Of a stretch of 64,000 nucleotides of DNA, positions 25,200-62,301 are shown in pieces. The DNA lies in contig CAVTCR010000052.1 in NCBI GenBank assembly GCA_963733195.1, positions 1-64,000 of the forward strand, given 5' to 3'. The notes beneath the pieces were generated by a model, which was not told where the DNA came from, did not search any database, and saw only the letters and a list, made by a program, of their open reading frames with translations. The position numbers were made by a program, and so were the translations under genes. The DNA is from an uncultured delta proteobacterium. GTDB lineage: Bacteria > Desulfobacterota > Binatia > Bin18. Numbering within the stretch: position 1 is the first letter of the stretch; every line of letters starts with the position of its first letter.

Positions 25200-25562
25200 A
25201 TGGGCACCGCCCGGACGGTGGTCGTGTGGCACTTGCAGCATGCCAGTATGGAGAACGCCATTAAGGAACATAAGAGTGGCTTTGGGTTGGAGAAGCTCCC
25301 GACGCAGAAGTTCCACGCCAACTGGGCCTACCTCCTCATCGGCCAACTGGCCTTTAATCTGGTGGCGTGGTTCAAGCGCTTAGTGTTGCCCTCTTCCTAT
25401 CAGCGGGTGACCATTCGGACGATTCGTTACCACCTATGCAATCTCGCAGGCAAGCTCATCCATACTGCCCGCCGCGTTTTCCTGGTGATCTCTGACCATT
25501 ATCGCTACCAAGGGGTGTGGCGCTTCGCGATTGACCGCCTGGCTCACTTGCAGTTTGGCTAA
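25200..25562 (+). mobile_element. IS1380-family transposase C-terminal remnant
   Basis: MENAIKEHKSGFGL..F.ANWAYL..LAFNL..WFKRL..TIRY. Confidence 0.8.
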
Positions 25563-26091: not shown

Positions 26092-27018
26092 TTATTCAGG
26101 AAACACGACTTTACCAGCCTCACGAACATTATACCCTCCCAGCGTCGCGGCTTTCTGCGCCAGTTCTTTCGATATCAACACTTGCAACAACGCCTGTACC
26201 GGTTTGGTGAAGTAATGGTCTTTGCGCACCACCAAATCAAACCGCTCTTCTACTAACGGGGAGAACGATAATCCCAACAACCGAGCTACTGCCTCGGCAG
26301 CGACTCCTACATCAGCCTGTCGTCGAAGGATCTGCAAGCCAACCTCCCAGTGCGTCCACACCTCGGTGTCGTATCCTTTGATCTGCTTCGCCTGTACTCT
26401 GGCAGTTTGCAGTTGCTGATCAATGAGCCATCGCACCCCAGATCCACGCTGACGATTGACGAAGCGCACTTTACGCCGTCGAAAGTCGGCGAATGAGGTA
26501 AAAGCTAACGCATCTGCACGCGATAAGAATCCCACACGACGATGCCACAACGTCACAGCGACAATAGTACCTTCCGCGAACTCTTGCGTAAGGAAAGGAG
26601 TATTGTACTTGCCAGTTTCAGAATCTCGGAGGTGGGTGAGCGCAATATGTGCTTTTCCCTGTTTCAAGGCTTCCAAGCCACCAAAGCTGCCCAGGTTGGT
26701 CGTGTACACGAGATACTCTGGAAAGTGAAAGCGCGCGAGTTCAAACAAAGCCGCAAGCAGGAGGTCATCACTCCCCGCAATCAACAATCCGCGGTCGAGG
26801 CCAAATCGCTCCGCCACAGCCACGGGTCGAGTAGCGGCTGACGTCTTTGCTCGAGCGCTACGGTGTACCCACTCTTCCACCAAGCTCTGCGGAAACACCC
26901 ATTTCCCGGTTACGCGGGTACAAGGAATGCTGCCATTGCGAATCAAGCGATAGACCTGTTTTTCGTTGATTTGTAAGTACGCAGCTACTTCACGAGTGTT
27001 GAGTAGTGTCTCTGGCAT
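26092..27018 (-). CDS. Excisionase-type HTH + PBP-domain regulator (TaoR-like, tungstate/molybdate responsive)
   Basis: HTH_17 N-terminus; AGSDD, GSFGGL, FVNRQRGSGVR, EERFDL; divergent from tupA. Confidence 0.88.
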   Translation of the reverse strand: MPETLLNTREVAAYLQINEKQVYRLIRNGSIPCTRVTGKWVFPQSLVEEWVHRSARAKTSAATRPVAVAERFGLDRGLLIAGSDDLLLAALFELARFHFPEYLVYTTNLGSFGGLEALKQGKAHIALTHLRDSETGKYNTPFLTQEFAEGTIVAVTLWHRRVGFLSRADALAFTSFADFRRRKVRFVNRQRGSGVRWLIDQQLQTARVQAKQIKGYDTEVWTHWEVGLQILRRQADVGVAAEAVARLLGLSFSPLVEERFDLVVRKDHYFTKPVQALLQVLISKELAQKAATLGGYNVREAGKVVFPE

Positions 27019-27038
27019 ATTCCTCCATTCAAGAAAAT

Positions 27039-27068
27039 AATAACAAAAAATAACATAAAACACCTTAA
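27039..27068. promoter_or_regulatory. 10-bp-phased direct repeats in the taoR-like/tupA intergenic region
   Basis: AATAACAAAA AATAACATAA AACACCTTAA upstream of TTGACA at 27093. Confidence 0.45.
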
Positions 27069-27151
27069 AAAAGGAAAATTATCCATATTTCGTTGACAAT
27101 ACTAGACTACACGTGGTAGCGACACTCCGCCTGCTCAAGAGTGGAGGTGAT

Positions 27152-28012
27152 ATGAAGCGATTGGTTGCTGCCAGTCTTTTTCTATGGATGGTGCTCTGGG
27201 CAACTGGGGTTTGTAGCCAGCCGGCTGCCTCACCTCAACAGGAAGTGATTTTTGCTACGACGACCAGTGTGCAGGATAGCGGCTTGCTGGATGTCATTGT
27301 TCCGATGTTCGAGAAAGACACTGGCTATCATGTCAAAGCCGTGGCTGTGGGAACTGGTCAGGCCTTGGCGATGGCTGGAAGAGGCGAGGCTGACGTCGCT
27401 TTGGCCCACGCGCCGGACACAGAAAAGAAGTATGTGACTGAAGGTTCATTGGTGAACCGCCGACTGATGATGCACAATACGTTTCTGCTGGCTGGTCCGT
27501 CTGCTGATCCTGCCAAGGTAAAAGGAACAAAGAAAGCAATCGCTGCACTCAGGAAAATCGCAGACACCAAGAGTACCTTCGTTTCCCGTGGTGATGACTC
27601 GGGAACGCACAAGTTGGAAATGAAACTGTGGGGAGAGACAGGCGTCAAGCCTGCGGGCGAATGGTACCTCGAAGCAGGGCAGGGCATGGGCAAGACGCTC
27701 GGCATCGCCGGAGAAAAGCAAGCGTATGTGATTTCCGACCGCGCGACCTACCTCGCATTTCAGAAAACTACGGGGCTGAACATTCTCCTCGAAGGCGATC
27801 CGGCTTTTCTCAACATCTACCATGTAATGGAAGTCAACTCGACGAAATTTCCCAAAGTGAATGCTGCCGGAGGAAAAGCTTTTGCTGACTTTCTCCTCTC
27901 AGCGAAAGTCCAGGAGGTGCTCAAGACCTTTGGGAAAGAGAAGTTCGGTGAGCCGCTCTTTTATCCGGATGCAGGGCGGACAGAAGAAGCGCTTCAAACA
28001 ATGAAGAATTAA
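27152..28012 (+). CDS. tupA: Tungstate ABC transporter substrate-binding protein
   Basis: signal peptide, ATTTSVQDSGLL, VGTGQAL, SRGDDSGTH, SDRATY. Confidence 0.93.
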   Translation: MKRLVAASLFLWMVLWATGVCSQPAASPQQEVIFATTTSVQDSGLLDVIVPMFEKDTGYHVKAVAVGTGQALAMAGRGEADVALAHAPDTEKKYVTEGSLVNRRLMMHNTFLLAGPSADPAKVKGTKKAIAALRKIADTKSTFVSRGDDSGTHKLEMKLWGETGVKPAGEWYLEAGQGMGKTLGIAGEKQAYVISDRATYLAFQKTTGLNILLEGDPAFLNIYHVMEVNSTKFPKVNAAGGKAFADFLLSAKVQEVLKTFGKEKFGEPLFYPDAGRTEEALQTMKN

Positions 28013-31243: not shown

Positions 31244-33045
31244 TCATAGTTGAGTGCTTTCTGTTTTTCCCGTGGAATGTAGTCCGTGTTCATCCCATCC
31301 TCGGGTTTTATAATACCCATCTATCATGACACGCAACTCAGTTTTCGTCAGCTCAATCCCTTGTCCTACTCCTGTTGGTAGAGGTGTCGCCGAGCAGTCG
31401 GGTCGGGAGCCAGTCATCTTGCGGCTGCCATCCCTGGCGGAGATTGAAGAGTTTCTTTGAGAATATTAACCCGTTCTCCGACCTGTTGGAGGTCCGATGC
31501 GGAAAAAGGCCAGCCCGTCACTTTGCTAAGAATCTCCGCGCTTTCAACATAGAAATCGGTAAAGCATTTGCGCAGGAATTTACAAACGATGAGCGAGTCT
31601 AAGACGGCAGAGAAATCTTCGGATGCGGCAACGAGCTCGCCACGCCGAGGGTCGGCCTGGAAACGATCCACTTGGCCGGAAAAATCGGCTTCATAGGCGC
31701 CTGAGCGATTGTGGCAAGCTCCACGCAGGCTCACTGCGAGACCCAAGGCCATCGTTTTCAAACTGCGCGGCTCATATCCAGGAAGCTCCATCCCTTTCAC
31801 GTGCATGGCAAGTTGTTCTGCTTCTCCACCGATAATCGAGGCTGCAGCACGGGAGCCTTCGGCAAGTAACGCACCAAGACCGGCGCGCTGACCGATTGCC
31901 TCAATGACTGTGAGAAACGCCTCTGCACTGCCAAAGCGCAAGCCGAGCCGTTGGGCGTCAGGAAGCAAATTCTTCTCGGCGCATTCCATCGCCCAGGCAA
32001 TCGTTCCGCCGGTACTAATGGTATCAAGGCCATACTTGTCACAGAGCTGCGCCGCGCGGAGGACAATCTGTGGGTCTTCGATGCCACACAACGGGCCGAG
32101 AGCAAAGAGCGTTTCATATTCCAGCCGCTGCGCTTTGCCGTCTTGCGTATTAAAAAGACGTTCACAACGAATGGTACAGGCAGCACAGCCGTGAGGGCGA
32201 TTTCCCGTTTCCTCCAGCAATTGTTCACCACTGAGGTTCTCAGCGTGTTCAAAAGTAGATTGTTGAAAGTTGCGGGTTGGTAAGACACCGAGTCGATTAA
32301 AGACCGCGAGATTCGCCACTGTTCCAATCTCGCGATATTTTGCCGTTACCGAACTCAGACTTTTGGTGCGCAAGGTATCAGCGATGCTCGCGACACCTTC
32401 GGGATCGGCCACACGCACACGATAAGAGCCACGCAGTGCGACGGCCTTGAGATTCTTGGCGCCCATGACCGCACCGGCGCCGCCGCGACCGGCATGGCGT
32501 TTTTCATTGCTGATAGTGGCAAAACGAACGCGGCGTTCCCCTGCGAGACCGATCGCGGCAATGCGGACCTCTTATCTCGTAATTCTGCGCGGATAGCGGC
32601 TTCTGTTTCTTGAGCGCTTTTCCCACAGCAGGAGAGCTGCGTCATGAAACACGACCGTATTCTCGGTAATGGCAAGATAGACAGGTGAGCTTGCCTTTCC
32701 GGAAATCACGATAGCGTCAAGCCGACAGCGTTTTAGTTCGAGCGCGAAGAAACTCGACGATAAGGAATCAGCGATAATGCCGGTTAAAGGCGAAGTGGTG
32801 ACGACTGCGAACTTCGCGGTCGTGGTCAGACCGGTATCCACTAACGGCGCGCTGGTAAAGATCAACGGATTTTCTGGCGCAAACGGATCAACTGCTGGAG
32901 GCGTGTAATCATACAGCAGCTTTGTGCCGAGTCCGACGCCGCCAAGGTATGACTGGAGGATTGCCGGGTCGAGAGCAAGCCACTGTGACGCGTGTGTCGT
33001 CAGATCGATATGAAGCAGGCGACCGTGAAATCCATGCATACTCAC
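31244..33045 (-). CDS. aor: Aldehyde:ferredoxin oxidoreductase family (tungsten), copy 1, frameshifted
   Basis: YLGGVGLG, SPLTG, MGAKNLKA, CAACTIRC, EYET, DKYGLD, RGACH, YY..RGWD. Confidence 0.88.
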
Positions 33046-37194: not shown

Positions 37195-39180
37195 ATGCAC
37201 GATCATCACGCTCCTGAACCTACATCCGCCCACGTCGAGCGCAAACGTTATCTAAAAAAGAAATCACTGCCTGAAGCGCTTGCCGTCTTTCTTGCCGCTG
37301 CTACGCCTCCTCATCGCGCGGAGCGGATTACCGTCGAAGAGACGCTGCATCGCACTATCGCCGAGCCGATCTTTGCTCTTCTCTCTGCACCCACACTACC
37401 ACGGAGCCGCCATGGATGGCATTGCCGTGCGAGCTGAGGACACGTTTGGCGCGAGTGAGTTTACCGCAGTGACGCTAACGTCGGCAGCTACCAGCGGGCG
37501 CAAAGCGAAACTCAACGGCGCGCACCCGGCTTTTCAATACGTGGATACCGGGAATCCGCTTCCTTCCTGGGCCAATGCGGTACATAATGATTGAGCGGGT
37601 GTTTAAGAAAAATGAGCAAGAGGTCGAGATTCGCGACGCCGCCACGCCGTGGCAACATGTCCGTTTAGTTGGTGAGGATATTGTCGCTACTGAGCCCTTG
37701 TTACCGCGTGGTCATAAGATACGACCCTATGACATTGGCGCGCTGCTTGCCGCGGGCCATACCCAGATTCCCGTCGTGGCGAAGCCGACCGTGGGCATTA
37801 TTCCTACCGGTTCAGAATTGATCGAACCCGGAGAAGCGCCGCGACCTGGGCGGATTATTGAGTTCAATTCCCGTGTTGTTGCGGCATTTACTGAAGAGTG
37901 GGGAGGTCTGCCTCGACGCCTCCCGCGAGTGGTCGATGATCTTCCGACCATCATCAAGGCGCTCAACCAGGCCGTGAAAGATCATGACATTGTCGTGATC
38001 ATTGCTGGCTCTTCGGCTGGTGAACATGACTTTACTGTGCATGCATTGGAGTCCTGCGGTGAAGTGTTAGTGCATGGCATCGATGTTATGCCCGGGAAAC
38101 CCGCGATTCTGGCGGTGAGCGAGGGAAAACCAGTGATTGGCCTCCCTGGGTATCCAGTGTCGGCGGTAGTGATCTGCCAGCAAATCCTGCGTCCTTTGAT
38201 TGCTCATTTCTTAGGTCGGACGGCTGAGGAACCACCGAAGGTCAAAGCCTTCCTGCCGCGCAAAATTCCCTCCCGTTTAGGGTTGGAGGAGTTTGTGCGC
38301 GTGAGTCTCGGTCAAGTCGGTGACCGCGTGATCGTCAATCCCCTCGGTCGCGGCGCGGGTGTGATCACCACGATGGTGAAGGCTGATGGCGTGCTGCGTA
38401 TCCCTTCACTTGATGAGGGGTTGAATGCTGGACAAGAGGTGGAGGTCGAACTCTTACGCCCTGCTGAAGAGATCGCCACCACGATTCTTTTTACCGGCAG
38501 TAATGACCTCACTATCGGTGTCCTTGACGACCAAGTACGCGCCCAGCATCCGGGTCTACGCATTTCAGCGAGCAGCATTGGTTCTCTTCGGCGGACTGAT
38601 TGCCCTCAAACGAGGCGAAGCTCACATCGTTGGTAGTCATCTGCTTGACCCTATTACTGGCGTTTACAATCTCCCGGACCTGAAAAAGCAACAGTTACGC
38701 TCGAAGGTTGTGTTGATGAACCTGGTCGTTCGGGAGCAGGGGCTGATTGTTCCTAAAGGGAATCCCAAAAAGATTCGGGGAATCAAAGACCTCACTCGTC
38801 CTGACGTTACCTTCATTAACCGCCAGCCCGGTGCTGGTACTCGAGTGCTGCTCGACTATAAGCTCGCCAAGCTGAAAATGAAGCCTCAACAGGTGCGCGG
38901 CTACGAGCGTGAAGAAGTGACGCATATGGCAGTAGCAGTTGCTGTCGCTAGCGGGCTAGCGGATACGGGGCTTGGCATCAAATCCGCCGCCAAAGCGTTG
39001 GGCTTAGATTTCGTCCCAGTCGAGCGGGAAGATTACGATCTCGTGTTTCTCAAGAATTTCTTCTCCAGTGAGATGGGCCAGAAGTTGGTGAGCGTCATTC
39101 GTTCCAAAGAGTTCAAACAAGCAGTCGCGCGACTTGACGGCTACGCTACTGCGAAGACGGGAACGATCAAAAAAATATAA
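37195..39180 (+). CDS. moeA: MoeA-PBP fusion (frameshifted)
   Basis: AMDGIAV, PTGSE, AGSSAG, PGKP, LPGYP; C-terminal GSND, NRQPGAGTR, EDYDL. Confidence 0.88.
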
Positions 39181-39189
39181 CCTTCACCC

Positions 39190-39729
39190 TCATGCCAGTT
39201 CCTTCGAACTTGGCGAGATAGCCGACACACATCGACGTATAAACAAATCTTCGGGTGAGTAATAAGGCGAGTCAAAGCTCTTGGCGTCGAGCGCCTCTAT
39301 CTGTGTTTGCTGCCGGGTGAGATAGTCACGACAGATAGTGAGTTGCGCCTCGATAAGCGCGTGGGTCTTTGTCGCACTCAAACGTCGGGCAAAATAGAGC
39401 TTCAGGAGAAAATCAAGGCGGACTTCGCGAATGCGCGCCACCGGACGATAGACCCAAGCGAGAAAAAGTTCCGCAGCCCCTGCGGTTAAGGAAAAGACCG
39501 TCCGTGGGGGTTGGGCACCCACGGTCTCGCGTTTGCCAGAGAGGAGCCCATGCTCCTGCAAATCCTTCAGAAAGCTATAGACCGTGCTGATATCTGCGGG
39601 CACGACTTGCCCTAAGTCGATGTCTAGTTTGAAATGCTGGGCGATCTCGTAGCCGTGCATAGATTGTTCGTGCAGCAGGCCAAGAATGGCATAGGCTGTG
39701 GGGGTTAGATTGACATGAAGAAGAGACAT
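39190..39729 (-). CDS. PadR family regulator (3' end possibly frameshifted)
   Basis: YAILGLL..MHGYEI, TVY..L, LLKLYF. Confidence 0.85.
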   Translation of the reverse strand: MSLLHVNLTPTAYAILGLLHEQSMHGYEIAQHFKLDIDLGQVVPADISTVYSFLKDLQEHGLLSGKRETVGAQPPRTVFSLTAGAAELFLAWVYRPVARIREVRLDFLLKLYFARRLSATKTHALIEAQLTICRDYLTRQQTQIEALDAKSFDSPYYSPEDLFIRRCVSAISPSSKELA

Positions 39730-39830: not shown

Positions 39831-41449
39831 GTGGTAGCGGAGCGTAACGACGTGGAAACGCGCCGCCGGAGTGCTGTGGCTTTTTTCTCTTCCCTTCCAA
39901 TTGGCTTTGCGGGGGGACTGATTGGCCTGGGCGGGGCAGAATTTCGCCTGCCGGTGCTGGCTGGTCCTCTGGGCTACTCCCCGCATCAAGCCGTGCCACT
40001 CAATCTCGCCATTAGCCTTGTGACACTGCTGGTGGCGCTGGTGAGCCGGACGACGACACTGTCTCTTGTGCCTCTTGACTCTTTTCGCGCCAGCAATACT
40101 TGCGCTCATTATGGGTGCGGTGATCACGGCGTTTCTGGGAGTCACCTTTCTCCATCGTCTTTCGGAAGAGCGGCTCACTCGGGTGATTTTCTTCCTCCTC
40201 GCTAGTATTGGAGTAGCCTTATTCTCGAAGGCTTTTTGCCGCAGAACCTTCCAGGATTTCTGCCGTCTGCCTTACGTGGCGTGTAAGTGCAGGCCTCCTT
40301 TTTGGACTTGCGATCGGCTTCGTCAGTAGTCTTCTTGGGGTGGCAGGCGGGGAACTGATTATCCCGACGCTCGTCTTTGCGTTTGGGGCGGATATCAAAA
40401 CGGCAGGCACAGCAAGTCTCCTGATAGGTATGCCGACGGTATTGGTAGGAGTCCTGCGCTATGCAAGTCGCGGGGCTTTCACTGAACGGCGGCTTCTTCG
40501 CGAGACGGCGCTGCCTATGAGCGTTGGGTCACTCCTTGGCGCAACTGCTGGCGGCCTGCTTGTTGGCGTGATTCCAGCAGGGGTTCTTAAGGTTGTCCTG
40601 GGTATCATCCTCAACGGATCTGCCTTTCATATTTTCCACCGGAGAAAGGCGCTCAAGAGACAGAACGAATCTGAGCACGTACCTCAATTCTCTCCGGTAT
40701 CGCCTTCGGAGGTGCATCTTGCCACCACCACCAGCGTGCAGGACACATACCTGCTTGCTGCTGTGCTTCCGCTCTTTGAGCAAGAAAGCGGCTATCGGGT
40801 ACAGAACACTTGTGGTCGGAACTGGACGGGCACTGGCGCTAGCGAGACAGAGTGAGGCTGACCTCGTCTTTACTCACGCACCAGCAGCGGAGAAGTCTGC
40901 CCTTCTCGCAGGCACGGTGATGAACCGTCGCTTGGTGATGCACAATACCTTTCTGCTTGCTGGCCCAGCAGCGGACCCCGCTCAGACGAGAGGAAGTCTC
41001 ACCATCTCTGAAACCCTGGCAAAGATTGCCCAGGCACGCGCCTCTTTGTGTCCCGAGGTGATGAGTCCGGCACTCACCTCTTTGAAAAGCAGCTCTGGGA
41101 GCAGGCGGGCGTTACCCCAGCAGAGCCCTGGTATGTGACCACGAACCAAGGCATGGGGAACACGCTTGAGGTGGCGGGAAGAAAGCACACCTATGTGTTG
41201 ACTGACCGGGCAACCTACACCGCGTTTCAGCAGCGCGTAGGGCTGGTCATCCTGTTCGAAGGTGACTCAGAGTCATTAAATCCCTACCATGTGATGGAAG
41301 TCACTCCAACGCAGCGGCCTAGGGGCAATCCCTTGGGTGGAAAAGCCTTGGCGGATTTTTTTTCGACTCCGGTGCAGAACTTGCTTTCCACGTTTGGGGC
41401 GGAGCGGTTTGGCGAGCCCCTCTTTCATCCTGCTTGCCGAGGCGAGTGA
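39831..41449 (+). CDS. TSUP (TauE/SafE) permease fused to a TupA-like tungstate-binding domain (frameshifted)
   Basis: GGLIGLGGAEFRLP and GVAGGELIIP repeats; ORF 40340-40855 runs from TSUP TMs into LATTTSVQD; SRGDESGTH, TDRATY. Confidence 0.75.
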
Positions 41450-41566: not shown

Positions 41567-43372
41567 ATGCAAGGCGCAACTGTTCTGCGTGTCAACCTGA
41601 GTACTGGCCAGATCCGCAAAGAAGCAGTGCCAGAGCAAATGATCAAAACCTTTATTGGCGGTCGTGGGGTGGGCAGCAAGCTGCTGATGGACAACATGGA
41701 CCCCAAGATCGACGCTCTTGATCCGCGCAATCCGCTCATTTTTGCCACTGGTCCGGTCACTGGAACCTATGCGCCGACTGGTGGCCGCTACATGGTCATT
41801 ACCAAGTCACCACTGACTGGAGCGATCGCTTGCTCGAACTCTGGTGGATATTGGGGACCCGCATTACGCTATGCGGGCTACGAATATCTGCTCCTTGAGG
41901 GCAAGGCGAAAGAACCCAGTTATCTCTACATCCATGATGACAAGGTCGAGATCCGCAGTGCCAAGCACCTTTGGGGCAAAATCGTCGACGACACAGAAAA
42001 CATGATTCGTGAAGAGACCCATCCTGAAGTGCGGGTCGCGTCGATCGGCCAAGGAGGTGAAAACCTCGCACGCACCGCCTGCGTCATGAACGATAAAGGA
42101 CGTGCCGCTGGTCGTTCCGGAGTCGGTGCGGTCATGGGCTCGAAGAACCTCAAAGCCGTCGCTGTCCTTGGCACCAAAGGGTTGAAGATTGCCAATCCTG
42201 CCGCATTTACGCAGGCGGTGTTGAAAGGCCGTGACAAGCTGGTGAAAGGTCCGACCACTGCCGGTCTCACCATGTTGGGTACGGCAGGCACGGTGTCCTA
42301 TATGAACATGGTCGGTATGTTGCCGACCAACAATTTCCAGATGGGCGTTTTTGCAGGGGCAGCGGCTGTCGATGGTACGGTCGTCAAGAAAGACTTCATG
42401 ACGCGTAACCGTGGCTGTCATAGCTGCATGATTCATTGTGGTCGGGTGACGAAAGTCACCGGACACGGCCAGTTTGACGGTCGAGGTGAAGGGCCGGAAT
42501 ACGAAACGATCTACGGCGTTGGCACGATCTGCGGCGTCGATAACCTCGCTGCTGTCATCAAAGCAAACTACTTGTGCAATGAGTATGGATTAGACACCCT
42601 CGAAGCCGGCATCTCTATTGGTACGGCGATCGAGTTGGCGGAGAAAGGCTATATCCCTGAGAGCGACATCGGCTTTCCGTTGAAATTCGGTGATGCTGAT
42701 GCCATGGTCAAGTTGCTCGAAGCCCAAGCCTTCCGCAAAGGTCCGATTGGTCACTGGCTGGCAGAAGGCGGGTTTCGTCTCGCGGAACACTACGGGCATC
42801 CAGAACTGTTCATGGGCTCGAAAAAGCAGGGTTTTGCCGCCTACGATCCGCGCGGCTCGATCGGTATGGGGCTGGCCTACGCCACCTCGAACCGTGGTGC
42901 CTGCCATCTGCGTGGCTATACCATTTCGCTTGAGCACTTCGGCAATCCCATCAAGCTGGACCCATTTACGATGAAAGACAAACCGTACTGGCTTACCATC
43001 CTGCAAAACACGACGTCGTTCGTCGATGCGTCGGGTATTTGCTTGTTCTCGACCTTTGACATGAGTCCTGGTGAAGATGTGACGGCGATGGTCAGTGAGT
43101 CGCTCGGGTACAATGTAGGCGGACCGGAGGAGATGCTCACAATTGGTGACCGCATTTGGAATCTAGAGCGCATGTTTAACAATGCGGCTGGATTGACTCG
43201 CGCGGATGACAGCCTGCCGCCGCGTATCACCAACGAGCCGTTGACCGAAGGACCGAGCAAGGGGCACGTCGTTGACCTGCCGCCCATGCTGGATGAGTAC
43301 TATCAACTGCGTGGCTGGGATACTCAAGGACGACCGACGAGCGATAAATTGCGCCAACTGGGGCTTGCGTAA
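41567..43372 (+). CDS. aor: Tungsten aldehyde oxidoreductase catalytic subunit (AorB-like)
   Basis: KSPLTG, GRSGVGAVMGSKNLKA, CHSCMIHC, GPEYET, RGACH, YYQLRGWD. Confidence 0.94.
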   Translation: MQGATVLRVNLSTGQIRKEAVPEQMIKTFIGGRGVGSKLLMDNMDPKIDALDPRNPLIFATGPVTGTYAPTGGRYMVITKSPLTGAIACSNSGGYWGPALRYAGYEYLLLEGKAKEPSYLYIHDDKVEIRSAKHLWGKIVDDTENMIREETHPEVRVASIGQGGENLARTACVMNDKGRAAGRSGVGAVMGSKNLKAVAVLGTKGLKIANPAAFTQAVLKGRDKLVKGPTTAGLTMLGTAGTVSYMNMVGMLPTNNFQMGVFAGAAAVDGTVVKKDFMTRNRGCHSCMIHCGRVTKVTGHGQFDGRGEGPEYETIYGVGTICGVDNLAAVIKANYLCNEYGLDTLEAGISIGTAIELAEKGYIPESDIGFPLKFGDADAMVKLLEAQAFRKGPIGHWLAEGGFRLAEHYGHPELFMGSKKQGFAAYDPRGSIGMGLAYATSNRGACHLRGYTISLEHFGNPIKLDPFTMKDKPYWLTILQNTTSFVDASGICLFSTFDMSPGEDVTAMVSESLGYNVGGPEEMLTIGDRIWNLERMFNNAAGLTRADDSLPPRITNEPLTEGPSKGHVVDLPPMLDEYYQLRGWDTQGRPTSDKLRQLGLA

Positions 43373-43385
43373 TAGGGGAGGGGAT

Positions 43386-43850
43386 ATGAAACAGATTGTT
43401 GTTCATCAAGAAAAGTGTACCGCCTGTCGTGAGTGTGAATTAGCCTGTTCGTTTTCTCACGAAGGCTCTTTCATTCCCACTCTTTCACGCATTCGGATTG
43501 CTGACTTCTATGAGGAGCAGTTCTATCAACCGATGGTGTGTGTGCATTGCGCCGATGCGCCGTGTGCGGCGGTGTGCCCGACTGTGGCAATCCAACGTCA
43601 AGCAGACGGGCAGATCAAGGTTATCGAAGACCGCTGTATTGGCTGCAAGATGTGCCTGCTTGCGTGCCCCTTCGGCGTGATGGGGTTCTCACCGGATAAA
43701 GGTGTGGCGCACAACTGTGATTTCTGCGACGGCGATCCGCAATGCGTACAGTTCTGTACTCCAGGGGCCTTGGAATTTGCTGATGTTGTGGCGGCGTCTG
43801 CTCCGGCGAGGCAAAAAGCGGCAGCCGCCCTAGGGTTGCCGCAGGCGTAA
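43386..43850 (+). CDS. 4x[4Fe-4S] ferredoxin subunit (AorA-like)
   Basis: CTACRECELAC, CVHC..PCAAVCP, CIGCKMCLLACP, CDFC..CVQFC. Confidence 0.92.
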   Translation: MKQIVVHQEKCTACRECELACSFSHEGSFIPTLSRIRIADFYEEQFYQPMVCVHCADAPCAAVCPTVAIQRQADGQIKVIEDRCIGCKMCLLACPFGVMGFSPDKGVAHNCDFCDGDPQCVQFCTPGALEFADVVAASAPARQKAAAALGLPQA

Positions 43851-44017
43851 CGCGTGGAAGTCTCGTGTAACGTGGTGCAAGTAGTGGAACGTGAAAGATC
43901 GGAAAGGAACGCCTGCTGGGTGAATTTCGAGGCTGTCGGGCATGACACGTTCATCGTAACACGCAGTATGCGACATGATGCCAACATCACGATCTGTGAT
44001 TGAATCGGAGGGGAAGC

Positions 44018-45272
44018 ATGGCCACGAAATATGTGCTCATTGGCAATAGCGCAGCCTCGTTAGCCGCAGTGGACGGTATCCGAAAATTCGACAAACAAGG
44101 CGAAATCACCATCATCAATCGCGAGACCGGTCCCGCGTACTCCCGCGTTGCTCTTCCCTACTATGTGGCAGGAGAGATGACGCTCGACGATCTCTTGATT
44201 CGTCAGAAACCTGATTACCAAAAGATTGGTGTCTCGCTGGTTGAAAAAGAGAACGTGAAGGCCATCAACCCATCCGCAAAGCAGGTCGAGTTAGAAAGCG
44301 GGAAGAAAGTCAGCTACGACAAGTTGCTGATCGGGACGGGTTCAGAGACGATCGTTCCGCCGATTCAGGGCCTTGCGCAGGTTCCGCATCACTATCTGTG
44401 GACACTTGATGACGCGATCGGCATGAAAAAAGCCACTGAGAAAGCAAAGACCGCAGTGGTGATCGGTGGTGGCTTCATTGGCATGCTTGCTGCCGAAGCT
44501 CTGCGGAAGTTAAAGATCAAACTGACGATTGTGGAGATGGCGCCGATTCTCCTGCCGCAGTTGCTTGATGAAGGAGCTGGCAAACTGTTCCTCAAGGCGG
44601 TTCGTGATGAAGGTGTGACGGTGCGGACTGGTTCGCTCGTGTCGGCGGTAGCACAGAAGAATGACGGTATCGAAGTCACGCTGAAGAATGGTGATACTTT
44701 TACCGTTGATATGGCTGTGGTGGCGACCGGTGTTCGTCCCCACGTCGGTTTCTTACAGAATGGCGCGGTCACTCTCAATAAAGGCGTGCTGGTGAACGAG
44801 TACCTACAGACGAATCATCCTGATATCTACGCGGCTGGTGATGTAGCCGAGACCAAAGATTTCTTGTCGGATGATCGTTCGATTTATGCGATCTGGCCAA
44901 CAGCGATTGATCAAGGACGGGCAGCAGGCACGAACATGGCCGGTAAGAAACAAGCCTACCCTGGCAGTCTTGGGATGAATGTCGTTGAGTTGTTCAATGT
45001 TACTCTGGCGCAGCTTGGGCGTTTCCGTGAAGGACCTGGGGACGACGTAAAAATGCTGTCCAAAGGGAGACGACGAGACGTATCGGAAAATTGTCGTTGA
45101 TAAGAACGGAACCCTGGTCGGTGCGGTTTATGTAGGGAACGAGAATGGCGTCGCGGAGATGGGTGTCATTCATAGTGCTATCAAGCGGCGTGAGAAGTGG
45201 CAGGGCTTCAAAGACGGACGTCCACCGCAGTTCACATACGGTGCAGTCATGCATAACGTGCCTCGGTATTAG
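44018..45272 (+). CDS. FAD/NAD-dependent oxidoreductase (AorC-like), frameshift near 45065
   Basis: IGNSAA, GTGS, IGGGFIG, ATGVRP, YAAGD. Confidence 0.88.
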
Positions 45273-61602: not shown

Positions 61603-62301
61603 ATGGATCTTCTAGTCACCGGCACCAAGCACGCCTTCTGGCTACTTCTTTCCGGCGACCCTGAAGTCTGGCGGATCACTTTTCTTTCTCTCCAGATCTC
61701 ACTGACAGCTACACTTATTAGTTTGCTCGTCGGCATTCCGCTCGGAACACTCCTCGCACTGACTGAGTTTCCTGGCCGCCGTTTCGTGCTGAGCCTCGTC
61801 AACACAGGGATGAGTTTGCCGCCGGTAGTGGTCGGACTCTTTGTCACCATTTTTTTGTGGCGCAGTGGGCCGTTGGGCTTTCTCCGGCTGCTCTACACAC
61901 CAACAGCGATGGTACTTGCACAAGTCGTGATTGCTGCGCCGATCGTTACCGGCCTTACGGTAGCGGCAATCCAACAACTCAATCCGAAGCTACGCCTCCA
62001 AATTCTCGCGCTCGGCGCGTCACGGGCACAGCTGGTGTGGCTGTTGCTACGTGAGGCCCGGTTACCGTTGTTAGCTGCGGTGATGGCCGGATTTGGTGGC
62101 GTCATCTCCGAAATTGGCGCATCGATGATGGTTGGCGGCAACATTCTTGGTCACACCCGTGTCCTCACTACAGCAACTGTGATGGAAACCAGCAAGGGGA
62201 ATTTTGATATTGCCATTGCACTGAGTGTGATCCTCCTGTTGCTGATTTTCGCCGTGAATGCGCTGCTCACTTACATACAGCAACGACGACGACCACTGTA
62301 G
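61603..62301 (+). CDS. tupB: Tungstate ABC transporter permease
   Basis: LPPVVVGL, RSGPLG, SEIGASMMVGGNI, TRVLTTA. Confidence 0.92.
   Translation: MDLLVTGTKHAFWLLLSGDPEVWRITFLSLQISLTATLISLLVGIPLGTLLALTEFPGRRFVLSLVNTGMSLPPVVVGLFVTIFLWRSGPLGFLRLLYTPTAMVLAQVVIAAPIVTGLTVAAIQQLNPKLRLQILALGASRAQLVWLLLREARLPLLAAVMAGFGGVISEIGASMMVGGNILGHTRVLTTATVMETSKGNFDIAIALSVILLLLIFAVNALLTYIQQRRRPL

Follow-up and report, generated by a model that had tools for sequence, protein, structure and literature searches.

The DNA analysed here (the window) comprises 64,000 nucleotides of contig CAVTCR010000052.1 (positions 1 to 64,000, forward strand; GenBank assembly GCA_963733195.1), from an uncultured delta proteobacterium of the GTDB lineage Binatia. 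It contains a gene in which a permease of the TSUP (TauE/SafE) family continues in frame into a complete TupA-type tungstate-binding domain. This fusion is a real gene. With a rough probability of 0.5, its product is an ATP-independent tungstate/molybdate permease from a distinct TSUP clade, with a cytoplasmic TupA domain that would sense or trap the anion. The functional readings below rest on sequence and gene neighbourhood, from which we infer the cytoplasmic location of the domain, the substrate, the direction of import and the gating or trapping role of the protein. The gene and its parts, mapped from open reading frames (ORFs), the DNA and tblastn, are as follows.

39831..41449, +, TSUP-TupA fusion gene, in six segments (frames 0/1/0/2/0/2)
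39852..40636, +, TSUP (TauE/SafE, PF01925) permease part: eight hydrophobic segments in two four-helix repeats, motifs GGAEFRLP and AGGELIIP
40637..40717, +, basic stretch HRRKALKRQ and Pro/Ser-rich linker, with no hydrophobic segment and no stop
40718..41446, +, TupA-type tungstate-binding domain (PBP_like_2): ATTTS, HAP, SRGDESGTH and DRAT; begins at the mature start of periplasmic TupA

The junction between the two parts lies in a single uninterrupted frame, as an earlier note on this DNA had claimed. Frame 2 is open from 40217 to 40855 and runs from the last four TSUP helices through FHIFHRRKALKRQNESEHVPQFSPVSPSEVH to LATTTSVQDTYLL, with HRRKALKRQ and then the Pro/Ser-rich linker separating the helices from LATTTSVQDTYLL. 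Both families are matched within the same ORF of 171 amino acids (aa; 40340-40855), Pfam TauE on residues 1-112 (52 bits; cut-off 32.6) and positions 15-49 of the NCBIfam TupA model on residues 123-157; a profile scan of the genome itself places TauE at 40295-40672 with 66.3 bits. Flanking TauE pieces are found at 39831-40205 and 40066-40329, and flanking PBP_like_2/TupA pieces at 40593-41138 and 41048-41449. The likely start is the GTG codon at 39852, with GGAG ahead of it at 39840-43, and the stop codon occupies 41447-41449. Joining the segments, with X at the breaks described below, gives a read-through of 532 aa with no stops, which is 81.2% identical to the homolog P0001 over 420 aa (all aligned residues) and 58.8% identical to full-length P0002 over 527 aa. 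The frame has no stop between 40640 and 40710, and a public contig from a close relative spans 40649-40799, covering the linker and the TTTS motif, with neither indel nor stop. A hydrophobic stretch was looked for between helix 8 and TTTS (40637-40717) and none was found; the TupA domain is therefore not preceded by a signal peptide, in agreement with the earlier observation that there was no room for one. The eight transmembrane segments were assigned on the basis of hydropathy, as hydropathy cores mapped by hand onto the eight segments of P0002, and the Pfam TauE model aligns in two stretches on the fused homologs, consistent with two four-helix repeats. In 119 of 146 representative TSUP relatives a glutamate stands straight after the G-x-x-G-G motif, and the window protein has one there in each of its repeats (GGAEFRLP and AGGELIIP). 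A membrane-embedded acidic residue in an anion carrier may hint at proton coupling.

The fused architecture is not confined to the window. Intact homologs with TauE followed by PBP_like_2, whose existence had been posed as a check, form six protein clusters: P0001 (433 aa, its N-terminus cut by the contig end), P0002 (545 aa), P0027 (511 aa), P0037 (504 aa), P0113 (498 aa) and P0218, a fragment; P0145 is a further fragment. The fused proteins P0001, P0002, P0027 and P0037 were among 63 proteins returned when longer relatives of the junction piece were sought, and P0218 and P0113 came from two further searches. Domain order was read from a Pfam scan in five clusters and from precomputed domains in P0113. 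These homologs are proteins from short metagenomic contigs and score 94-106 bits against Pfam TauE. They divide into two groups. In group A (the window protein, P0001, P0002 and P0218) the linker is 20-30 residues long; in group B (P0027, P0037 and P0113) helix 8 and TTTS stand about 8 residues apart. Among free TupAs, those closest to group A are the secreted proteins P0217 and P0219 together with the window's own TupA, at about 70% identity, and those closest to group B are the lipoproteins P0328 and P0329, at 50-54%. In a 62-row TSUP tree the two groups fall apart, and forcing the four tested fused proteins into one clade costs 64 log-likelihood (lnL) units (approximately unbiased test, p-AU 0.007), so that a single origin of the fused TSUPs is rejected. 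Only the TSUP tree rejects it; the well-supported branches of a tree of TupA domains are compatible with one origin of the fused state. One 455-aa metagenomic ORF, P0210, has an aldehyde dehydrogenase N-terminal part followed by a TupA domain 95% identical to that of P0002; it is probably a chimera of assembly or gene calling, since the ORF starts in mid-domain.

The fused TupA domain looks competent to bind tungstate, to judge from its residues. The C-terminal part of P0002 aligns with the solved TupAs 3muq (E 2e-55), 3lr1 (E 4e-55) and 5my5 (E 7e-47), beginning at chain residue 5-24. The available part of the report on D. alaskensis TupA names T9-11, S12, H59, R118, T124 and D170 as site residues and gives dissociation constants (Kd) of 6 pM for tungstate and 6 nM for molybdate (PMC5517513). 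None of these site residues varies among four fused proteins (T297-S300, H347, R407, T413 and D457 of P0002), and the window read-through carries the corresponding motifs ATTTS, HAP, SRGDESGTH and DRAT, which upholds the assignment to tungstate-type TupA first made from TTTS. The fused domains score 99-169 bits against NF041772, the NCBIfam TupA equivalog, and so miss its cut-off of 400 bits; since free TupAs miss it too (the window's own at 189, P0217 at 195), the cut-off has no discriminating value here. The earlier note had also read the sequence DTYLL, in place of DSGLL, as a hint of altered affinity. The letters are as it gave them, but altered affinity is without support, because the D-x-x-L-L positions differ from one TupA to another, fused or free, and are not among the site residues named in the available part of the D. 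alaskensis report (PMC5517513). The fused domain has neither signal peptide nor lipobox and lies away from TupBC, with tupB about 20 kb off; the window's free TupA has a signal peptide.

The fusion gene is divergent from a gene for a PadR-family protein and lies directly upstream of aor, as had been noted before; its immediate neighbours are listed here.

37280..39180, +, MoeA fused to a PBP_like domain (MoeA-PBP; cytoplasmic tungstate-type MoeA), split over three frames
39190..39729, -, PadR-family regulator, divergent from the fusion gene; its homologs head padR-modA-modB-TSUP operons elsewhere
41567..43372, +, aldehyde:ferredoxin oxidoreductase (AOR; gene aor), a tungstoenzyme family, intact (Pfam)

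Relatives of the TSUP part are joined to, or lie beside, several modules of molybdenum and tungsten (Mo/W) metabolism. Among the 63 longer homologs, four are TupA-type fusions, six are ModA-type fusions (one also with TOBE), ten more have a C-terminal TOBE domain, one has an N-terminal ABC ATPase and 41 are TSUP only; the remaining one is named YqeB-family by its source, and a Pfam scan shows only a TauE domain in it. We then examined 80 TSUP loci in named genomes (cyanobacteria, Chloroflexota, Blastocatellia and Rubrobacter), the best 80 of 510, with a tblastn panel reaching 8 kb from each. ModA-like genes were found at 26 loci and TOBE at 10 (either of the two at 28), PadR homologs at 10 and TunR-like periplasmic-binding-protein (PBP) genes at five; TupA, AOR or MoeA was found within this distance at none of the 80. 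Of the linkages that the earlier note had proposed to look for, that to padR is thus conserved at 10 of 80 related loci, and that to aor, at 0 of 80, is specific to the window. A Pfam scan of 46 of the 91 ORFs in eight loci identified padR-modA-modB-TSUP operons (L060, L091 and L087), modA-modB-TSUP operons (L053 and L067) and the arrangements padR-modA-modB-modC-TSUP (L032) and padR-TSUP-modA-modB-modC (L044). In five of the eight operons (L053, L060, L067, L087 and L091) no ABC ATPase gene was seen nearby among the scanned ORFs and the TSUP gene occupies the usual place of modC, which may lie elsewhere. At the metagenome locus L122 a TupA gene stands divergently beside the TSUP gene and is followed by FdhD and MobA, and at L115 a TunR-like gene stands divergently beside TSUP with MoCF_biosynth downstream.

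Homologs of the window's PadR (34-42% identity) head padR-modA-modB(-modC)-TSUP operons in Chloroflexota-type genomes (loci L032, L044, L060, L081, L087, L091 and L097). The PadR-family protein is a candidate Mo/W-responsive regulator on this gene context; no description of such a PadR regulator was found in the literature. The padR/TSUP intergenic region contains no inverted repeat, and promoter and terminator scans stayed at chance level. More broadly, and with odds that we place somewhat below even, the TSUP clade may represent an unrecognised family of ATP-independent prokaryotic tungstate/molybdate transporters that has captured Mo/W modules repeatedly (TupA at least twice, ModA and TOBE). 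Where TupA is fused, ATP-free uptake would be driven or gated by a binder of picomolar affinity at the cytoplasmic side, which would trap the anion and hand it to the cofactor machinery, and PadR would be the Mo/W-responsive regulator of the family.

For the window protein, the proposed mechanism is that the TSUP permease would pass tungstate, and perhaps molybdate, across the membrane without ATP, and that the TupA domain, of the picomolar-affinity type, would sit at the inner mouth of the permease and bind the incoming tungstate. As a sensor, the loaded domain would shut the permease in a replete cell, by the same logic as TOBE in ModBC and the NrtC/CmpC domains considered below. As a trap, it would make the entry of the scarce anion effectively irreversible and hand it over to MoeA-PBP, the product of a neighbouring gene, for AOR's tungsten cofactor. 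The neighbours fit the trap: MoeA-PBP lies upstream, and aor begins 117 bases downstream of the fusion gene, from which no terminator-like site separates it.

A number of observations weigh against this reading, and they are given here together with the alternatives on which they bear, beginning with the state of the gene itself. Alignment with intact homologs (tblastn) and inspection of the DNA revealed five single-base indels in the fusion gene; three interrupt the TSUP part, the other two the TupA part. Indels ahead of the remaining TupA motifs had been described before, and the two in the TupA part answer to these; the three in the TSUP part had been missed.

Break 1, 40082..40085, +, one extra T in a T-run; frame 0 to 1
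Break 2, 40217..40218, +, one C missing, GCC|CTT read as GCCTT; frame 1 to 0
Break 3, 40270..40271, +, one C missing, GCC|CTT; frame 0 to 2
Break 4, 40803..40803, +, extra A, absent from a near-identical public contig; frame 2 to 0
Break 5, 41041..41042, +, one C missing, GCC|CTC; frame 0 to 2

The five frameshifts are most likely assembly errors: this genome has its rpoB and rpoC broken up too, and the extra base at 40803 is not present in a near-identical contig. The rpoB gene is spread over three frames (model positions 5-606, 601-1106 and 1092-1238) and rpoC over at least three pieces, one with an internal TGA (rpoB/rpoC at G000 C71:133111-141235); gyrA is intact. Other genes of the window are split as well, with two shifts in a NuoF-like gene, one in a gene like that of formate dehydrogenase (FDH) and two in MoeA-PBP, and a gene like that of xanthine dehydrogenase (XDH) is also in pieces. 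With so many single-base indels in the assembly, frameshifted genes of this genome are to be read with caution. The near-identical contig is 151 bases long, differs at two other letters and has no A at 40803, so that break 4 is read straight through there; this check uses short contigs of close relatives and, among the five breaks, reaches break 4. Once the frames are corrected, 9 of 15 substitutions relative to the near-identical public contigs prove synonymous; within the frame-0 segment that follows break 4, five of six are synonymous third-position changes, the sixth being R to K. That the window copy is instead a decaying pseudogene of a once-functional fusion, with real frameshifts, we consider very unlikely. 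Five breaks in 1.6 kb, set against two in about 3.7 kb of rpoB and none in the adjacent 1.8-kb aor, would fit decay. So would the close relative P0145, a 186-aa ORF from another assembly, which crosses the helix-8/linker/TTTS junction and break 4 in frame and then departs from the TupA frame, its tail matching out-of-frame translations of the window; that assembly may be noisy as well, or the gene may be decaying in the lineage concerned. No source reads of the locus were found among public runs, the best of which holds a share of 0.10 of its sampled words. A systematic error signature was also sought, three of the five breaks being GCC|CT read as GCCT, yet GCCCT is not depleted genome-wide (1.73 per kb; loci of relatives, 30 kb in all, have 1.57 per kb). 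Decay would not, however, account for breaks in the essential rpoB and rpoC, and all five breaks are of a single base, the 532 codons contain no stop in any correct frame, the differences from near-identical contigs are mostly synonymous, one such contig is without break 4, and every tungstate-site residue is retained. The earlier note had named real inactivating frameshifts as grounds for refutation; on the same evidence the breaks look like noise of the assembly.

The TupA domain probably lies in the cytoplasm, behind the last helix, given the TOBE domains of sister proteins, the extra helix of ModA fusions and the distribution of lysine and arginine (K+R). The earlier note had placed it there by the positive-inside rule, and the placement stands on indirect grounds. 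TOBE domains occupy the same C-terminal place in all five sister TSUPs checked, and TOBE domains are not known from any but cytoplasmic proteins. They are recorded in cytoplasmic regulators, storage proteins and ABC ATPases in the available part of one survey (PMC11980592). In the ModA fusions P0006 and P0012 a basic stretch and a hydrophobic segment ending in G-C, resembling a lipoprotein signal, stand between TSUP and ModA; such an extra helix is called for only when the C terminus of TSUP lies inside, and the TupA fusions have none. Mean K+R over 50 TSUP sequences is 9.1 vs 6.1, favouring N-in/C-in; this is a modest bias, and loop 3-4, supposedly on the outer side, is basic. It is unlikely that the C terminus instead faces outward, with the TupA domain as a tethered substrate-binding domain delivering tungstate to the permease, which would make the protein a binding-protein-dependent secondary transporter. 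Some ABC importers do carry fused binding domains. An outside domain would suit the modest charge bias, the identity of about 70% between the fused domain and secreted TupAs, its start exactly at their mature N terminus, the likeness of the Pro/Ser/Ala-rich linker to the N-terminal tether of free TupAs and the free TupA or ModA genes that adjoin TSUP genes. It is hard to reconcile with TOBE, not known outside cytoplasmic proteins, at the same position in sister TSUPs, with a signal-peptide-like helix in the ModA fusions that would be needless were the C terminus already outside, with the basic tail directly past helix 8, and with the mere 8 or so residues from helix 8 to TTTS in group B.

Should the domain be cytoplasmic, the transported anion and the direction of transport can still be read differently. 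An exporter of the same architecture and topology, in which the TupA domain feeds or opens efflux of excess tungstate or molybdate and so protects molybdoenzymes, seems improbable to us. Named TauE/SafE members are described as exporters in the available part of one source (PMC12227400), the window is full of Mo- and W-type enzymes whose metals need to be kept apart, and it already holds a canonical TupA and TupB for uptake, so that a second tungstate importer is not obviously needed. Efflux sits poorly, though, with the operons that the clade shares with the uptake genes modA-modB(-modC) and with the cofactor-synthesis genes beside it. A picomolar binder would be saturated long before tungstate became toxic, and the TauE-family members with experimental data take up sulfate (PMC11535334) or, in the part of the source available, raise Mo in yeast (PMC12227400). 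We give still less credence to a TSUP part that moves an anion other than molybdate or tungstate (sulfate, sulfite or another), with Mo/W domains that only tune it, for example by stopping molybdate and tungstate from entering through a sulfate pathway. Known TSUP substrates are sulfur compounds, and 52 of the 80 related loci have no Mo/W panel neighbour; seven of these were inspected and had unrelated, variable neighbours. Yet the 15 TSUP loci inspected by Pfam have no sulfur-assimilation neighbours, except for an opposite-strand rhodanese in L053, and four different Mo/W modules are fused or adjacent to the clade (TupA, ModA, TOBE and TunR-like). The main reading is also not helped by the Rfam search of the window and five cyanobacterial TSUP loci, which gave no molybdenum cofactor (Moco) or other riboswitch, nor by the rarity of the fusion. 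Species-representative genomes gave no fused form in the best 80 of 510 hits, and none occurs among 41 metagenome loci, among the matches listed for 400 same-phylum genomes or in 40 close relatives. The best 150 representative-protein matches, all TSUP-only or fragments save P0145, P0113 and a few long proteins, are of no use for a count of fusions. Free TupA is common in same-phylum genomes, with 250 of 401 matched. The fused domains lie on long branches in the TupA tree, and a changed or relaxed function is possible.

The closest analogues of the proposed permease with its cytoplasmic TupA domain are the NrtC-CRD and CmpC-CRD domains of cyanobacterial nitrate and bicarbonate ABC importers, which also join a homolog of a binding protein to a transporter. 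In the available parts of the sources, each is a cytoplasmic domain homologous to a substrate-binding protein (SBP), about 30% identical to NrtA or CmpA, that senses the intracellular anion and regulates transport (PMC10945777, PMC13287603). Those domains are carried by an ABC ATPase and act through its nucleotide-binding domains, whereas the TupA domain stands behind the last helix of a secondary permease, and on the side of the membrane inferred above; it is also far closer to its free counterpart (about 70% in one group), and its regulatory role is putative. A second parallel is found in ModBC/ModC, where, reportedly (Gerber et al. 2008), a cytoplasmic C-terminal Mo/W-binding TOBE domain shuts uptake by trans-inhibition when the anion is plentiful. 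Sister TSUPs bear TOBE at the same C-terminal place, but the fusion gene has a TupA fold in place of TOBE and no ATPase. With the TupA of TupABC (D. alaskensis and G. sulfurreducens; 5my5 and 3lr1) the fused domain shares its fold and the motifs TTTS, H59, R118, T124 and D170, and differs in having no signal peptide, in its place behind a permease and in its distance from tupBC. Cytoplasmic use of Mo/W-type PBP folds is itself known from PBP-MoeA and TunR/TaoR, both types of which are encoded in the window; those proteins attach the PBP_like (PF12727) branch to an enzyme or to a DNA-binding domain, and the fusion gene places a domain of the true TupA branch on a membrane permease. PBP-MoeA (MoeA1) is held to be cytoplasmic and co-occurs with TupA, according to the available text of PMC11733289.

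With the TSUP/TauE transporters (TauE and SafE) the permease shares the Pfam TauE fold, the two four-helix repeats and a small oxyanion as the likely substrate. A P. fluorescens TauE-family homolog complements sulfate uptake (PMC11535334), and rice OsDISMO1, of the TauE family, alters Mo distribution and raises Mo in yeast, as stated in the accessible part of its report (PMC12227400). In a limited literature search, with database architecture tables outside its scope, we found no prokaryotic TSUP tied to Mo/W and no TupA domain on a TSUP or other secondary transporter. The parts are known (TSUP, TupA, cytoplasmic SBP-like sensors and TOBE trans-inhibition); a TupA domain on a TSUP is apparently undescribed. 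The available parts of PMC5517513 and PMC11733289 describe prokaryotic tungstate/molybdate uptake as three ABC systems, ModABC, WtpABC and TupABC; if the import reading is true, a secondary-transporter family would be a fourth route. The scoring of W/Mo use in genomes would then change, for example where the presence of tupA or modA serves as a proxy (PMC13328260, PMC11980592, each as far as its text was available), and a permease with a picomolar binder would offer a compact single-gene system for studying ATP-free capture of trace oxyanions. That TupA, ModA and TOBE have been fused repeatedly and independently to a single TSUP clade offers a lead that can be tested directly, and the conserved PadR would point to an undescribed Mo/W regulator in lineages where no ModE turned up.

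Beyond the immediate neighbours of the fusion gene, the window contains further genes of this metabolism.

26092-27063, -, TunR-like regulator (HTH_17 + PBP_like), within 26092..28012
27113-28012, canonical secreted TupA with signal peptide, within 26092..28012
43272-43850, Fer4 gene, downstream of aor
44000-45100, FAD oxidoreductase gene, downstream of aor
61603..62301, +, TupB-like ABC permease, 89% identical to the TupB adjoining TupA in a same-family genome

These belong to a Mo/W island at 26092-62301, which comprises the TunR-like and TupA genes, two AORs, FdhD, a MobA-like gene, a set like that of XDH and carbon monoxide dehydrogenase (CODH), two FDH-like catalytic subunits each with NuoF-like partners, two MoeA genes (one of them PBP-fused) and the lone TupB. 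A comparison of GC content between the fusion gene (0.572), the island (0.540) and the genome (0.539) gave no compositional sign of foreign origin for the gene, and the island has no GC anomaly. A C-terminal fragment of a DDE transposase (DDE_Tnp_1_4) lies at 25200-25559 (+), just upstream of the tunR-tupA pair. The genes tupA (27 kb) and tupB (61.6 kb) are far apart, and the nearest match to a ModC-like ATPase is outside the window, at C52:67892. The second AOR gene (31417-33045, -) contains an in-frame TAA around 32572 and no frameshift, which would reflect either a substitution error or a real nonsense codon.

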